A stretch of DNA of 12,078 bases from Candidatus Methylomirabilis sp. GTDB lineage: Bacteria; Methylomirabilota; Methylomirabilia; Methylomirabilales; Methylomirabilaceae. Position numbers: made by a program. This document shows, piece after piece, positions 6,001 through 12,000 of the stretch (its first letter is position 1; each line of letters opens with the position of its first letter). The stretch spans positions 1 to 12,078 of the forward strand of contig JBGQJI010000072.1 of NCBI GenBank assembly GCA_041498975.1. Reading direction: 5' to 3'.

Positions 6001-9000
6001 GGTCCGACGGTGTCCTGCGGATGGTCAAACAACAGGTGATCAGATTCCGGGTGATTGCCCCTTTGCTCCTTGTGCTAACGGCAACGCTGGCTTGCGTCGC
6101 CGCTAACAGCAGCCAGGAGTTGCCGCTCGATCAAATCACACTGCCCTTGGGCTTTAGGATCGGCATTTACGCGACGAATGTGCCAGATGCGCGTTCGATG
6201 GCCCTCAGCTCTAAGGGCACGCTGTTCGTCGGCACGCGCGAAGCAGGGAATGTCTACGCCATCGTGGATCGCAACCGCGACGACAAAGACGTCGAAGTCA
6301 TCACCCTCGCCCGCGGCCTGAATATGCCAAATGGCGTCGCGTTCCGCGATGGGGCCCTCTACGTGGCCGAGGTCAACCGCATCCTGCGATACGACGATAT
6401 CGAAGCCCACCTCACGGATCCCCCGAAGCCTGTCGTGCTCAGCGATGCCTTTCCTCGAGACCGGTCGCACGGCTGGAAGTTCATTCGATTTGGCCCGGAC
6501 GGGCTGCTGTACGTGCCGGTAGGGGCACCCTGCAATGTCTGCGAGCCTGAGGACGAACGTTATGCCTCGATCACCCGGATGAAGCCCGACGGCACCGGAT
6601 TGGAAATCTTCGCCCGCGGGATACGCAATACGGTCGGATTTGACTGGCATCCCAAGACGCATGAACTCTGGTTCACCGATAACGGGAGGGATTGGCTTGG
6701 CGACGATCTCCCGCCAGACGAATTGAATCACGCGCCGAAGCAAGGGTTGCACTTCGGTTTCCCCTATTGCCACGGGAAGAACATTCGAGACCCTGAGTTG
6801 GGGAAGAGGCGGAAGTGCAAGGAGTTCATCGCGCCGGCGCTCGAACTCGACCCCCATGTGGCGGCGGTCGGCATGCGCTTTTATACGGGGACGATGTTTC
6901 CGGAGGAGTACCGAAACCAGGTCTTCATTGCGGAACATGGATCGTGGAATCGCAGCGCCCCGATCGGGTATCGCGTGACGTTGGTGCGACTCGACGGAAA
7001 AGGTCCGCCCGAGTACGAAGTCTTCGCTGAGGGGTGGCTGCAAGGCGGCCGCGCGTGGGGACGCCCGGTGGATCTGCTCGTCATGCCCGGTGGCGCGATG
7101 CTTGTCTCGGATGACCGAGCAGGCGTGATCTACCGGATCAGTTACGGGAAGTAGCCCACCCTCTCTTGGGGCTTGACACTTCGGACGTGGAACCGTGTTA
7201 AGATTGCGCAGCCTGTCCCGAGCAGCCCCGAGGGGTCCCACTCCTCGCAATGACACGGGCGAGGGGCACTTTCGAGGCAATGACACCTGATCCGGCGAGC
7301 AAATTGTTTGTCGAAGTTTTTTTCGGGACAGAACGCCAATTCCGTGATAGGAATAGTCTGGCCTCGGAGAAAGGGGCCATCGGGTTCTCGACGAGATCGA
7401 CGAAAGGCTGAAGCCGATACGGGGGATGTGGGTAAGACAGTGGCAGGATATGTTTCGGTGAGCGGTGGCGAGAGTTGACGTTGACCGGGAAAAGGAGGGA
7501 GAACGTGCAACGCAGGCCCAGTAGCTCATCACCTTTAATAGGTGGTGTGGTTGTCGCATGTGCTATCGCTTTCCTCGTTGGCCTGTCTAGCGCAATCGCG
7601 GAGCCAGTCGATCCATCCAACAGCGTTCGCCCCGCTAGGACAGCGGCGGAAGGTGACATGCCCGCTACGGTGCAGCGACCTGCCCCAGGCAGCCCGTCGC
7701 AAGATCGGCCGGTTGGAGTGGCGAGCGAGGAGATCGAACTGGAGGCCGTTCAATTGACCGGTGCGGCCCCCGCGAAGCGGTTGCAATTCTCCACGCAGAC
7801 CGACAGGGAGGAACTCCAGGAATACGACCCGTGGGAGCCCTACAATGAAAAGATGTTTGCGTTCAACCACGACGTGTTCGACAAGTACCTCCTGAAGCCG
7901 GTGGCGAATGTGTGGGATAAAGTCGTACCCGACTGGCTGCAGCAATGCCTCGCTAATGCCTTCGATAACGTCGGCATGCCGCGGCGCCTGGTGAACAGCC
8001 TCCTGCAGGCCAAATTCAGGGGAGCCGGCCGGGAGGTGACCCGCTTCTTCATCAACAGCGTGTTCGGGATCGGCGGCTTCTTCGATATCGCGAAGGACTC
8101 GGGACTTCAGAAGAGCGATGAGGACACCGGCCAGACCTTAGGCTTCTATGGCGTGGGCCCCGGTGCTTATCTGATCCTGCCCATTCTGCCCCCGTTGACG
8201 GTCCGTGACGGAATCGGCTACGTCGCCGACGCGGCGCTCGATCCCCTTAGCTACTTCATCCCGTTTGCCGCCTCAGCGGGAAGATGGGCGGGAGAATCCG
8301 TCAATACACGGTCGCAAAATCTGGAATTGTTCCAGAGTGTCGAGGAGAATACGGTCGACCTCTACAGTGCAGTGCGAAACGCGTACCTGCAACGCAGGCA
8401 GAAGGCGATCGAAGAATAGCTGTCTCGAGGAAGAGACGGATGATCATGACGGCCCCTGTTCCGGGCGCTGGAGTGCAAGCGCTCTGCCGATAAGACATCG
8501 CTCCGCATTCTGAAGACCCCCCACGGATGAGTAAGACCCTTTTGAGCACGGGTTTCCTCGGTCAGGTCCCACTTGTCTCGGCGCTGTCGGCTTCTGAGCT
8601 CAATCGGCTGTCCGCCCCCCGGTTCACGCGCTCCCTCAGGAAAGCCTGCTTGGTACGGCCAGGCGGGTGGGGCAACCACGGTCGAGTTCACGCTGGAGAT
8701 CCCCTGCGCTACATCCTCGTGGGCCATGCCCGCTCGCGAGTGGAGCGGGGCCTGGTCGGCTTCCTGGTGGTCGAAGGGTGGGCGAACCGCTGACATGTCC
8801 GAAGAGAGTAGATCGCAGTGGTCGCCCGCCAAGAGCCACCGTGCAGCGGGCAGGCCTCGTGAGCCGTGTGTGTCCACCCGCTTCCTGGGTGCGATTGCGT
8901 TCGCGGGATGTAAGAATGATGAGCATGAGATGATATCGGTGCGGGGCTGGCGTTGGTGACCTGACGCAGGGGTCAAGGATGGTATCGCGACGGCCTATCC

Positions 9001-12000
9001 GGTTTCCCCTGTTGGCGTTGGGGGTGGCCGCTCTGCTGGCTGCGCTGTGGGGGGGGCTCCTGCGCCTGGGCTGGAACTGGCCGATCATCCATCGTGTCCT
9101 GCCCGCCGCACACGGTCCCCTGATGATCTCCGGATTCCTGGGCACCCTCATCGGTCTGGAGCGGGCAGTCGCCCTGGGACACCGGTGGACCTACTTCGCC
9201 CCGGTCATGACAGGCTTGGGCGCCCTGTCGCTGATCGCAGGCGCACCCGCCGCGGTGGGCGCGTCCTTCATGGCCCTGGGCAGCCTGGGCCTGGCGGCCA
9301 TTTTCGCCCAGCTCGTCCGCCGCCAGCCGGCCCTTTTTACGGTGATCATCGGGTTGGGGGCATTGGCGTGGCTGGTCGGCAACAGCCTCTGGCTCGCCGG
9401 ATGGCCGATCTTCAGCGTTGTCCCCTGGTGGGCCGGATTCCTGGTGCTCACCATCGCCGGTGAACGGCTGGAACTGAGCCGCTTCCTCCCGATCTCTCGA
9501 GCCGATCAGCTCGTCTTTCTTTCTGGCATCTGCCTCTTCTTGGCCGGCCTCCTCATCACGGGGATGGCTTTCGACAGCGGGGCGCGCCTGAGCGGTCTGG
9601 GCTTGCTTGCCTTGACGCTCTGGCTCCTCCGACATGACATCGCCCGGCGGGGGGTGCAGAAGGCGGGACTGACCAGATTCGTTGCTGTGAGCCTGTTGTC
9701 TGGATACATCTGGCTGGGGGTGGCGGGGCTGCTGTGGTTCCGACTGGGCGGCGTGGTGGCGGGGCCGTATTACGATGCCGTCCTTCACGCGATCTTCCTG
9801 GGTTTCGTCTTTTCCATGATCGTCGGTCACGCGCCGATCATCTTCCCGGCGGTGCTGGGGATGCCCGTCCCTTTTCGAACGGCCTTCTATAGCCATCTCG
9901 CCCTGTTACACATGTCGCTTGGGTTGCGGATGGTGGGCGATCTGGCGCCATGGTGGCCGGGTCGGCTGTGGGGCGGGCTGCTCAACGTCCTGGCCGTGCT
10001 CCTCTTCCTGGGGAACATGGCGGTTTCCGTAGTCCAGGGCAGAGCCCTATCTCGTTAATGGTTCTGGTGCGTGGATCGGGCTACGCACAGAAAGGGAATG
10101 TTGCATGGCCTTGAACCGGTCTGACGGGTTGCGGATGGGTCTCGGTCGAGAGGAGGGTCCGAACGTGCAGCCGGCCAAGCCTGTCGGCGCGACGGGAGGA
10201 CCGAGTCCGTCTTATGACCGCGTCCGTGTCGCGCGGCTTCCCATGCATTTCTTTTCTGTCGCCGTCGGCTTCTTTGGGCTGGCCGTGGCCGCAGCGCCGT
10301 GGGTCATAGGTGATCTGGTGGACTTCTTTTATCAGCCTCGGCTGCTGGCCTTGACCCACGCCATTACGCTGGGATGGATCACTTCTGCGATCATGGGGGT
10401 CATGCATCGCTATGTCCCAGCCCTGACGAAGCGGCCGCTTCGATTCCCGCGCATGGCGCTTCTGCAGCTCTGGCTCTTTGTCGTCGGCGTGACGGGGATG
10501 GTCGCCCACTTTTTCATCGGACGCTGGATCGCCACCTGGCTCGCCGCTGGCGTGGTCGTGCTGAGTGTGATCCTCTTCGCTGCCAACATGATCTCCTGTC
10601 TGGCTCCCGCCGGAGGCCGGGGTGTGGCGGAAACCGGGATGCTGCTGGCTGTCCTGTATCTGTTGATTGCTGCTGTGCTCGGCCTGCTCCTGGCGTTGGA
10701 TAAGACTTTCGGGTTCCTGCACGGCAATGTGCTCTCGAACCTGGCCGCTCATGCGCACCTCGCGGCGCTTGGCTGGGTGAGCCTCACGATATGCGCCGTC
10801 TCCTACCGGATGGTTCCGGCATTTCTGTTGCCGGAGGTCGAGCTGCCGCGCGGGGCGATGTGGCAGCTCTACGGCCTTGCTGTTGCTGTGGCTGGCCTTG
10901 GCATTGCGCTTCTCGGCAGGTTCGGTGGGGCATCCTTCTGGAGCGTTGCCATCATGATGGCCCTCCTCGCGTACATTGCTGTGCTCGTAAGTCTTGTGCG
11001 TAAACGGCGGATGCCGATTGACTGGTCGATGCGCCATGCGCTGGCTGGCGTCGTCTGCCTGGTGCTGTCTGCGGGCCTCGGGCTCTCACTCGTCTGGATT
11101 GACCCCGACAGCGCCCTCGGCAATAGGATCGCGGGAGCCTACGGCGTCCTCGGGCTGCTCGGCTGGGTGACGAACTTCATCGTCGGGATGTCGTATAAGC
11201 TCTTTCCGGGATTCATCGCCGGGCTACGTGAGACCGCCGGCTGGCCAAAACTGGGGATCGCGGAGCTCTCACTGCCCCGTTACCGTCCGTTCGTATTCTT
11301 CTCGCTGAATAGTGGCAACCTGGTGCTGGCCGGCGGCCTGATCACGGCTCAGGTGGCGCTGGCTCGCGTCGGTGCGGTGGTCATCGCCGGGGGAGGTCTG
11401 GTGTACGTGGCGGTGATGGCCTGGACCCTCAGCTATGCCTATCGCCGCTCCGTTCCCCGGGCCGCGAGTGACCCGCTCCGCATCCTTCCCGGCGGCTCGT
11501 CGAGACCGTAACTGGTGGCGGAAGGACGCTATCGTAGGAATGGCGCGGCTGGACCGGCAACTGTGTGGCCTGTCATGCCGCCTACCGGCTCGACGAAGCG
11601 CGCTGAAGAACTGTTTTAGCCCTGGCCGATGGCGCCGTCTGAGGCGCCACTGCGCCCATCGGGACTACCATGCCCCACCCCTTCCTTCCTCTGCTAGCAA
11701 GGGGTTAGCCCCCTTCCGCCAAGTAAGGCTGAGGAGGCTCTGCCCCAAACTCCTAAGGTTCGCTCACTTGCCGTGATTGTTGGCTCCAAGCATAGAGGTC
11801 AGGAACTCTGTAAAATCAATAAGCTACACTCGCATGCCTCCCATGCCACGGTTACGCCCCCTTGGCATCGATGTTGCTTTTCTCTGGAACGGGATAGTGT
11901 TCCAATAGCCTTTGCAACTCTGCGCCGTTCCGGACGCTGTAACCTACGAGGGAGGGATGAGCCATAGCCCAGCAGTTGAAGACGACCGTCAGCGTGATTA

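Follow-up and report, generated by a model that had tools for sequence, protein, structure and literature searches.

The closest described relatives of the gene pair analysed here are the proteins of the HCO-homology (HCOH) families, NnrS, and CcoN and NorB among the heme-copper oxidases (HCOs) and their kin. HCOH proteins reportedly consist of 12 helices in three homologous units, are said to resemble oxidases most strongly in oxidase helices 9-12 and to conserve just two histidines, proposed to hold one heme, and their genes are reportedly linked to denitrification, NO detoxification and DUF2249. All four of these features were found independently in the P0002 family described below. NnrS has been reported to contain heme and copper. 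HCOH families with three 4-helix evolutionary units are described by Pei, Li, Kinch and Grishin (2014, Protein Sci 23:1220-1234), reportedly with electron-transfer roles in denitrification, and NnrS belongs to NO regulons (PMC1274295). A preliminary description of the present locus had proposed a new non-catalytic branch of the HCO superfamily; HCOH families of this kind were reportedly outlined by Pei et al. in 2014, and the claim of a new branch is therefore not supported. The two proteins analysed here, P0001 and P0002, are uncharacterised members of a little-studied group of oxidase look-alikes that had been sketched out before and is linked to nitric-oxide metabolism. What is added here is that P0001 shares the fold, that P0002 is a triple repeat with invariant H85 and H216, that these two may occupy a third pocket, and that relatives have NO-related neighbours. 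Placing the His pair in the third pocket, matching the conserved Tyr to the proximal His, and seeing two different HCOH genes in one operon are our own readings.

The window, i.e. the whole stretch of 12,078 nt that was analysed, carries both genes in the same direction, 46 nt apart (Table 1). The spacer has no terminator-like site, and direct reading places its GAAAGGGA 7 nt ahead of the P0002 ATG; we infer that the two genes form one operon. Both are present in 19/19 genomes of the same genus, on one contig and adjacent in 18. Among 78 related loci, which are kin of one another and not independent, the pairing occurs in 14; it is lineage-specific. The other genes of the window encode, by Pfam, MlaA, a glucose/sorbosone dehydrogenase, ADH, GNAT, MFS and a deacetylase; they say nothing about NO, and no CcoO/CcoP or NorC gene was found near the pair in a Pfam search of the window.

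Table 1. Coordinates of the gene pair, repeat units and candidate ligands in the window.
Feature	Position	Strand	Basis
P0001, 359 aa; compact 12-helix HCO-fold (predicted), NnrS-like, no Pfam family	8979..10058	+	ORF, translation, AF2, VIA-align
H45 codon, helix 2 of P0001; invariant 20/20	9111..9113	+	alignment
H270 codon, helix 10 of P0001; invariant 20/20	9786..9788	+	alignment
Spacer P0001-P0002, 46 nt, ribosome-binding-like site GAAAGGGA	10059..10104	+	direct read
P0002, 468 aa; 12-helix HCO-fold, without binuclear-centre ligands	10105..11511	+	ORF, profiles, AF2, Foldseek, VIA-align
P0002 repeat unit 1, residues 40-172, helices 1-4	10222..10620	+	hhalign
H85 codon, helix 2 of P0002; invariant in 47/47 distant relatives	10357..10359	+	alignment
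P0002 repeat unit 2, residues 173-303, helices 5-8	10621..11013	+	hhalign
H216-A-H218 codons, helix 6 of P0002; H216 47/47, H218 42/47	10750..10758	+	alignment
P0002 repeat unit 3, residues 304-446, helices 9-12	11014..11442	+	hhalign
Y346 codon, helix 10 of P0002; 43/47	11140..11142	+	alignment, repeat register

P0002 scored below the Pfam cut-offs for COX1 (E 5e-4, 19.5 bits; cut-off 34.8) and NnrS (E 4.5e-3, 16.8 bits; cut-off 28), and a profile search of the genome's contigs gave a COX1 match at C72:10246-10695 (20.4 bits). These figures reproduce those given earlier, as do the 536 homologs at E<=1e-3 among 8000 candidates scored, of which the named ones come from NC10/Methylomirabilis and Binatus and part carry a cbb3 subunit I label. 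The score against NCBIfam ccoN was 20.4 bits. That the protein has a complete HCO subunit-I fold, as previously claimed, was borne out: the AF2 model (24 rows) has 12 long helices at pLDDT 81.1 and pTM 0.83 (83.6 and 0.85 before), Foldseek returned 81 PDB matches at E<=1e-3 with 4xyd_A again the best (1.5e-7), and VIA-align placed 393 residues on the cbb3 subunit CcoN (8smr_E) with Z 33.9 and rmsd 3.2 A. CcoN/NorB structures (3mk7, 8smr, 9g6b, 4xyd, 3o0r) were the best matches overall, with Z 30-34 for P0002 and 25-28 for P0001; size and the 12 helices are shared, with no extra helices, whereas identity to the two proteins is 12-15%. CcoN/NorB were also the sole PDB sequences matched by a profile built from 47 P0002 relatives (CcoN at E 1.7e-8). 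Pfam COX1 reached E<=0.01 in 37/54 distant relatives, 12 of them above the cut-off, and NnrS was weakly matched by two of the 54. Judged from sequence profiles, the kinship of P0002 with oxidases is homology, more than shape alone.

Comparison of its parts by hhalign shows that P0002 contains three clearly recognisable copies of a 4-helix unit (unit 1 vs 2: 98.8%, E 7e-17; 1 vs 3: 97.9%, E 6e-13; 2 vs 3: 99.2%, E 6e-20), and the part of CcoN closest to unit 1 is helices 9-12 (E 1.7e-8). The preliminary description took the protein for a respiratory-enzyme descendant deprived of its catalytic centre; such a clear internal repeat fits a less diverged form equally well.

Conservation was assessed in a close set of 24 sequences and a wide set of 47 relatives at 20-52% identity. 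H85, H135, H216, H311, Y234, R235 and N357 are invariant in the close set, as had been stated, but W354, which had been included with them, is kept in 23/24, and in the wider family H135 and H311 fall to 28/47 and 27/47. The alignments point to H85 and H216 as invariant candidate ligands and to H218 and Y346 as near-invariant ones. The histidines of P0002 are, in full, 48, 85, 101, 135, 206, 216, 218 and 311; reading the sequence, none lies in helix 7 (249-271), helix 10 (337-378) or helix 11, in agreement with the claim that those of the binuclear centre are absent. CcoN/NorB have a His pair in helix 7 and an HxH in helix 10; both are thus missing from P0002, which makes a CuB/FeB-heme binuclear centre impossible in the known way.

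Counting back from the LGW motif, positions -8 and -6 are L83/H85, H216/H218 and Y346/V348 in units 1 to 3, and the repeat alignment pairs H216 with Y346 and H218 with V348. In CcoN/COX1 the same register holds the helix-2 ligand at -8, the helix-6 CuB ligand at -6 and the helix-10 HxH at -8/-6, ligand roles that we take from the textbook assignment. H85 stands 6 residues ahead of W91, displaced by two residues from the canonical helix-2 His, and aligners therefore put in a 2-residue gap. H218 shares its register with the canonical CuB ligand, H216 lies two residues before it, and Y346 occupies the place at which the catalytic heme of oxidases has its proximal His. Alignment of P0002 to canonical oxidases found three registers (79%, 55% and 41.5%), with no clear winner. 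A profile alignment that sets H216 on the CcoN helix-2 ligand scored negative (domain 1).

From the positions of Y346 and H218, one could suspect that P0002 is still an enzyme, with a new heme or non-heme metal centre built on these two residues with H216/H85 and acting on NO, O2 or another small molecule of that kind; the host genus is noted for its unusual NO chemistry and for having several HCO variants (PMC11214002). We regard this as quite unlikely, given that four of the six canonical ligands are gone, that neither a subunit II nor a cytochrome c partner is encoded in the window, that the conservation of H218 and Y346 falls short of that of H85 and H216, and that a brief look identified no conserved proton-pathway residues.

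P0001 matched no Pfam or NCBIfam family, and NnrS (PF05940) was found at E<=10 neither in P0001 nor in any of 20 members of its family. The nearest Atlas clusters bear the automatic name 'NnrS family protein' (score 0.97), 7854/8000 candidates scored reached E<=1e-3, and a true NnrS-domain protein from the genus is 29% identical to P0001 over 140 residues. True NnrS occurs in this genus as a ScdA_N-NnrS-DUF1858 fusion, which was not found in the window's genome (84.9% complete). The AF2 model of P0001 (pLDDT 91.2, 12 helices) aligned with CcoN 8smr_E over 352/359 residues (VIA-align, Z 28.1, rmsd 3.8 A), so that P0001, like P0002, is predicted to have the HCO 12-helix fold, a point absent from the preliminary description. 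The 12-helix oxidase-like fold is common to NnrS and both proteins, although neither reaches the NnrS cut-off; the kinship with NnrS proposed earlier finds support in the weak matches of P0002 and in the NnrS-like P0001. Of the two H..FLGF repeats ascribed to P0001, one stands (HAIFLGF, at 270), while the other site, at 45, reads HGPLMISGFLG. H45 precedes the G-F of its GFLG motif by 8 residues, the canonical helix-2 heme ligand register, and H270 precedes F276 by 6, that of the helix-10 low-spin heme ligand; P0001 would accordingly keep the canonical helix-2/helix-10 His pair. H270 aligned with H85 of P0002 in an hhalign unit comparison (91.4%).

An HCOH operon pair of single-heme accessory proteins of NO handling is the reading we prefer, at about even chances; P0002 itself is probably an accessory protein with one heme that serves nitric-oxide handling or denitrification. 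In this reading the pair comprises two different members of the HCOH group, each made of three 4-helix units and devoid of a copper/iron reaction centre. Each protein would bind one b-type heme between its two invariant histidines: P0001 with H45 and H270, at the low-spin heme site of real oxidases, and P0002 with H85 and H216 in a third symmetry-related pocket, empty in real oxidases, a placement suggested by its three-fold repeat register. Y346 and H218, at the place of the catalytic heme and CuB in oxidases, may form a second, weaker site. By the binuclear mechanism, neither protein can reduce O2 or NO. Their most likely task would be electron transfer linking the quinol pool with NO-related partners, or NO buffering at the membrane; a bis-His heme binds gas poorly, and buffering and bis-His ligation therefore fit badly together.

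The pair had earlier been taken for a cofactor-poor sensor or channel of NO/O2. Oxidases possess hydrophobic gas channels, and relatives have hemerythrin, cupin and an NO-regulator as neighbours. We find this very improbable: the invariant H85 and H216, apparently placed to sandwich a heme, favour a six-coordinate electron-carrying heme over an open gas site, and the invariant residues resemble metal or heme ligands rather than a pore lining. Moreover, neither protein has a signalling output domain, the window has no adjacent kinase or regulator, and NO and O2 cross membranes without a channel.

In the 78 related loci the most frequent neighbour is a caa3 oxidase cluster, which points away from an NO role: in 37 of them, all from a single family of organisms (Binataceae-type), the P0002 homolog is arranged tail-to-tail with genes for CtaG and a COX1-COX3 fusion. 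P0002 might then be a subunit I mimic in assembly, holding heme or copper or scaffolding the caa3 oxidase. We give this little credence, since the convergent genes would not be co-transcribed, no caa3/CtaG neighbour was seen in the NC10 loci, and the sole canonical COX1 of the window's genome is on another contig (C34).

The preferred assignment to NO handling, as supposed for NnrS, draws on neighbours found in other lineages and a minority of loci: copper nitrite reductase (NirK) in 3/78, two above the TIGR02376 cut-off; an Rrf2 regulator in 2/78, closest to NsrR and below cut-off; and iron-repair-type hemerythrin/DUF2249/ScdA_N proteins in 19/78. Cupins occur in 12/78. In locus L007 a nirK encoding an additional cupredoxin domain at the N terminus overlaps the start of the P0001 homolog, and in L076 nirK lies downstream. 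This arrangement could also suit a dedicated electron-transfer pair, in which membrane cytochromes b, fed by quinol or a VKOR-type disulfide/quinone module, would reduce copper proteins of the periplasm, nitrite reductase among them, and bind no NO; two-His sites suit a six-coordinate electron-carrying heme, many Methylomirabilis P0001 homologs are fusions with a VKOR domain, and Pei et al. (2014) reportedly describe electron-transfer roles in denitrification. We hold it to be rather unlikely: NirK is near in just those three loci and absent from the window, a quinol site was not identified, and the P0001 of the window is not fused to VKOR.

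P0002, the downstream protein of the pair, scores below the Pfam cut-offs for both COX1 (E 5e-4; 19.5 bits, cut-off 34.8) and NnrS (E 4.5e-3; 16.8 bits, cut-off 28), reaches 20.4 bits against the NCBIfam model ccoN, and holds the genome-wide COX1 match at C72:10246-10695. Single-sequence searches of the PDB with P0002 or with its upstream partner, P0001, gave no meaningful match. The AF2 model of P0002 (24 rows; pLDDT 81.1, pTM 0.83) found 81 PDB structures at E≤1e-3 with Foldseek, the best being the cNOR subunit NorB (4xyd_A, 1.5e-7), and a second aligner placed residues 39-449 on residues 8-467 of the cbb3 subunit I, CcoN (8smr_E; Z 33.9, rmsd 3.2 Å, 393 residues). 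P0002 thus has the 12-helix subunit-I fold of heme-copper oxidases (HCO). Among 8000 candidates scored, 536 were homologous at E≤1e-3, and this count, like the Pfam, genome-wide COX1, AF2 and Foldseek results, reproduces the preliminary description within small differences. A profile of 47 family members (20-52% identical to P0002) matched CcoN at E 1.7e-8, with helices 1-4 of the family lying on CcoN helices 9-12 (CcoN 308-413). The scale of the family is given by a search of 1.84 billion 50%-identity cluster representatives with the close-family profile, which found 1670 proteins with E≤1e-3, of which 750 reached ≤1e-10 and 138 reached ≤1e-30; most are 420-450 aa long. Distant members match Pfam COX1 at E≤0.01 in 37 of 54 cases, 12 of them above the cut-off, while two match NnrS and one is fused to FeS_assembly_P.

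Positions of the two genes of the pair
Feature	Position	Strand	Description
P0001	8979-10058	+	359-aa ORF
P0002	10105-11511	+	468-aa ORF

We compared P0002 with a canonical set of 19 oxidase and qNOR-type sequences from related genomes, mapping ligands through sequence and profile alignments. P0002 has eight histidines (48, 85, 101, 135, 206, 216, 218 and 311). Helices 7, 10 and 11 contain none of them, which bears out the preliminary description for helices 7 and 10 and extends it to helix 11. The helix-7 His-His pair that binds CuB/FeB is absent (no His at 249-271), a position at which all 19 canonical sequences have HH or HN. The helix-10 HxH that ligates both hemes, found in 19/19 canonical sequences, is also missing, and Y346-G-V348 stands in its place. 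The helix-6 CuB/FeB ligand is matched by H218 in the sequential hhalign alignment, whereas H85, measured from the LGW motif, is displaced by two residues towards the C-terminus from the canonical helix-2 ligand, so that this alignment takes a 2-residue gap after H85. Within the 47 relatives, H85, P105, G128, G193, H216 and G353 are invariant; L89, G90, W91, G98, G223, W224, P238, D306, G326, Y346 and P368 are kept in at least 90%; and conservation is partial for H218 (42/47), Y234 (38/47), H135 (28/47) and H311 (27/47). Both genes are real, the fold is real and the catalytic centre is truly absent. Some homologs carry a cbb3 subunit I label in public records, as had been reported. The name 'cbb3-type cytochrome c oxidase subunit I' would falsely credit their organisms with an oxygen reductase, so aerobic respiration inferred from genomes of Binatia, NC10 and other groups should be read with this caveat.

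The fold of P0002 is built from a clear triple repeat. When the 47-sequence alignment was split into three 4-helix units (unit 1, residues 40-172; unit 2, 173-303; unit 3, 304-446) and these were compared with hhalign, units 1 and 2 matched at 98.8% (E 7e-17), units 1 and 3 at 97.9% (E 6e-13) and units 2 and 3 at 99.2% (E 6e-20). Against the canonical set, several registers of the family are possible: hhalign returned a four-helix shift (79%), an eight-helix shift (55%) and the sequential register (41.5% over 388 columns). Since all three were returned, the register is not fixable from sequence alone; the structural superposition of P0002 on CcoN is sequential.

On the second helix of every unit of P0002 we found the motif x-x-x-x-x-L-G-[WF]...G...P, which provides a common register for the ligands. 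Counting back from the W/F, positions -8 and -6 of P0002 are L83/H85 in unit 1, H216/H218 in unit 2 and Y346/V348 in unit 3. At the same register, CcoN and COX1 have the helix-2 heme ligand at -8, Y205 (-8) and the CuB ligand H207 (-6) on helix 6, and the helix-10 HxH at -8 and -6. In oxidases, these residues of helices 2, 6 and 10 are assigned to heme b/a, heme b3/a3 and CuB: the low-spin heme sits between helix 2 (-8) and helix 10 (-6), and the catalytic heme on helix 10 (-8), opposite CuB on helix 6 (-6). From this we took the rule that each pocket is lined on one side by a unit's -8 residue and on the other by the -6 residue of the unit before it. To our knowledge, the third pocket so defined is filled by side chains, without ligands, in every solved oxidase. 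If the rule holds for P0002, this third pocket would be flanked by H216 (-8, unit 2) and H85 (-6, unit 1), the catalytic pocket by Y346 and H218, and the low-spin pocket by L83 and V348, which would offer no ligand.

The same rule can be applied to P0001, whose AF2 model (pLDDT 91.2) also has 12 helices. In Foldseek the model reaches only E 5e-3; superposed on CcoN it aligns 352 of 359 residues (Z 28.1, rmsd 3.8 Å). P0001 has no Pfam or NCBIfam match. The clusters nearest to it by language model bear the automatic name 'NnrS family protein' (0.97), it is 29% identical over 140 residues to a protein of the genus with a bona fide NnrS domain, and its 359 aa and 12 modelled helices fit NnrS (PF05940; 12 transmembrane helices, about 360-400 aa), yet the NnrS cut-off of 28 bits is reached by neither P0001 nor P0002, and 20 members of the P0001 family gave no NnrS match even at E≤10. 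This family is far larger than that of P0002 (7854 of 8000 scored candidates at E≤1e-3) and spans NC10, Chloroflexota, Bipolaricaulia and Binatia. Compared with the close P0002 family in hhalign, it scored only 19.7%, over the last unit, which made a unit-level comparison necessary: of the P0001 units, unit 3 alone is recognisably related, at 91.4% to unit 1 of P0002. H45 (-8, helix 2) and H270 (-6, helix 10) are both present in 20/20 members, with H284 and H311 also kept. P0001 is the same kind of protein as P0002, and H45 and H270 would form the canonical low-spin pair.

From the pocket rule and the positions of these histidines we infer that each protein may bind one bis-His heme, the two in different pockets. 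For P0002 we tentatively propose, at less than even odds, a heme in the third pseudo-symmetric pocket, between helices 2 and 6, and a Tyr/His site in the catalytic pocket, that is, a layout rotated by one unit, in a protein that in Methylomirabilis would form an obligate pair with an NnrS-like partner using the canonical pocket. Should the rotated layout be correct, then this arrangement, the clear triple repeat and the free-standing HxH units found near relatives would jointly show, in present-day proteins, the wiring of a trimeric 4-helix hemoprotein from before the rise of the oxidase reaction centre. Two other readings of the pair are an electron-relay role alone, which we consider unlikely, and a novel Tyr/His reaction centre made of Y346 and H218, which we regard as improbable. 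The predicted ligands (H85, H216, H218 and Y346 in P0002; H45 and H270 in P0001) open the heme question to direct test.

The preliminary description had presented P0002 as a new branch of the HCO superfamily. Pei and colleagues are said to have defined, in 2014, HCO-homology (HCOH) proteins, which include single 4-helix units resembling helices 9-12 most closely; others, NnrS included, reportedly have 12 helices in three units, with a pair of conserved histidines suggested to hold a single heme, and the context of these proteins is said to lie in denitrification and NO detoxification. All these features were found here independently: three homologous 4-helix units (97.9-99.2% between units of P0002), units closest to oxidase helices 9-12, two conserved histidines (H85 and H216 in 47/47 members of one family, H45 and H270 in every P0001 relative compared), and neighbours in relatives tied to denitrification and NO. 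The kind is therefore already known, and the claim of novelty falls. What may be new is that both families belong to it, that they pair obligately within a single genus, that the His pair is rotated in position and that a Tyr is conserved. The new NOR families of Murali et al. 2024 retain heme ligands, and no P0002-like family was met in the accessible part of that article (PMC11214002). The literature searched held no experimental characterisation of either family.

We then considered the neighbouring genes in 78 related loci, on one-genome-per-species contigs from Methylomirabilota, Binataceae and a few Rokubacteria and Acidobacteria; as these loci are kin, the counts do not represent independent events. 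A P0001 homolog is present in 14 loci, directly upstream in 11 of NC10 type; in L013 and L020 a cupin-like ORF stands between the two, and in L048 they are 4 kb apart. Within the genus, all 19 genomes searched have both genes, adjacent on a single contig in 18. A Pfam scan of the 14 window ORFs showed no subunit II or cytochrome c partner gene adjacent to the pair. The other neighbours were counted by tblastn with representatives. Genes of a caa3 oxidase (CtaG, a COX1-COX3 fusion or both) lie convergently in 37 of the 78 loci. A role in oxidase assembly seems to us slightly less probable still than a Tyr/His centre. Hemerythrin/DUF2249/ScdA_N proteins are found in 19 loci, a small cupin in 12, NirK in three and Rrf2 in two, L013 and L020, where it is NsrR-like and upstream (in L020, best match NsrR, 135.9 bits, below the cut-off of 182). 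As an example, L020 reads Rrf2, a 122-aa ORF, a hemerythrin-DUF2249 fusion, P0001 homolog, cupin-like ORF, P0002 homolog. In L007 the P0001 homolog overlaps two genes, the P0002 homolog and, at its own start, nirK (TIGR02376, 368.9 bits against a cut-off of 296.3), which bears an extra cupredoxin domain. The order in L076 is a 147-aa protein made of one 4-helix unit, ScdA_N-DUF2249, then a distant P0002 homolog and lastly nirK (343 bits). In 39 loci of Binataceae type (e.g. L014:4261-5256, minus strand), a conserved 331-aa ORF to which Pfam assigns no family stands upstream of the hemerythrin/cupin/P0002 genes and is divergent from them.

At about even odds, P0001 and P0002 are best understood as accessory membrane hemoproteins of NO/denitrification physiology, and the FeS_assembly_P and VKOR fusions of their homologs point the same way. 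The gas sensor or channel suggested in the preliminary description appears very improbable. No regulator or regulatory site was identified in the window. The closest named relatives belong to Methylomirabilis, noted for unusual nitric-oxide chemistry, and a putative membrane hemoprotein pair whose relatives are associated with nitrite reductase and with genes of NO stress can reasonably be proposed as a so far unstudied component of its physiology. NnrS recurs in NsrR, NorR, DNR and NnrR regulons (PMC1274295) and DUF2249 proteins are induced in denitrification (PMC11218638, PMC6282519); none of the literature found links DUF2249 with oxidase subunit I.

The two genes are co-directional with a 46-nt spacer, and a GAAAGGGA site lies 7 nt 5' of the P0002 ATG. 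They are flanked by unrelated genes of housekeeping type (by Pfam, zinc ADHs, a deacetylase-like protein, an MFS_3 transporter, GNAT, a glucose/sorbosone dehydrogenase and MlaA). The sequence is reproduced, free of indels, by DNA contigs from two public sediment runs (X1, X4). Contig depth in public DNA runs increases two- to three-fold across 9768-9881, and many contigs end at 9854-9869; since no other motif of the P0001 family is as well conserved as the one encoded here (HAIFLGF...GHAPIIFP), these contigs probably derive from other organisms. A soil RNA-library run gave contigs 90-95% alike over parts of both genes; as they come from a relative and DNA carry-over is possible, we did not count them as evidence of expression. 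The gene pair is preceded by a 559-nt gap (8420-8978), much longer than the ~240 nt of close relatives, of which the block from ~8527 is kept in L003-L005. No sigma-70-like promoter was found in the gap, and a resemblance by eye of its translation to the start of a Crp/FNR regulator was dropped (no Pfam match at E≤10). An antisense 204-aa ORF (8362-8976) and a 113-aa ORF (11435-11776), both without family, are probably not genes.

Several observations were made on relatives. Many Methylomirabilis/NC10 homologs of P0001 carry an N-terminal VKOR (vitamin K epoxide reductase) domain, for a total of ~550-600 aa (L006:1114-2778, L010:4304-6004 and L011:4212-5888, plus strand; proteins P0159, P0173), a fusion that suggests quinone-linked redox chemistry. 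In L006, L011 and L023 the fusion gene is preceded by two others, one for a small radical SAM protein (263-270 aa) and one for a phosphoribosyltransferase; in L010 a larger radical SAM/TRAM protein and a phosphoribosyltransferase take their place. In L048, of Binatia type (L048:4654-6123, plus strand; L048:7676-11345), the P0002 homolog lies directly 3' of a sigma-54 activator gene and is followed by cytochrome c genes and a molybdopterin oxidoreductase, with the P0001 homolog 4 kb upstream. The free-standing unit of L076 (1061-1504, plus strand) is of oxidase type, bears an H-A-H motif and matches unit 2 of the P0002 family at 95.8% in hhalign and Pfam COX1 at 32.6 bits; a trimer of it would yield three identical two-His pockets. 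A 280-aa ORF at L076:222-1064, considered as a two-unit partner, is an Arg/Pro-rich off-frame artefact. Whole-genome NnrS matches exceed the cut-off in three genomes of the genus (G001, G010, G012). In G001 and G010 the ORFs scanned are ScdA_N-NnrS-DUF1858 fusions with NnrS above its Pfam cut-off (L084:1123-2916, plus strand, 597 aa; L086:1234-3039, minus strand, 601 aa), a third type of oxidase-fold protein in the genus, tied to iron-repair-type domains; no copy of it turned up in the window's genome, which is 84.9% complete. Nor did the P0002 query find there the second P0002 paralog that 11 of the 19 same-genus genomes carry (35-37% identity, ~466 aa; e.g. G007:C11:8480-9754, G008:C1:1437930-1439204). 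Finally, the search reports one in-frame TAG in the P0002 ortholog match of G003:C92, G012:C38 and G019:C146, which could reflect an alignment overrunning the gene end or reaching into the upstream gene, or a real stop.
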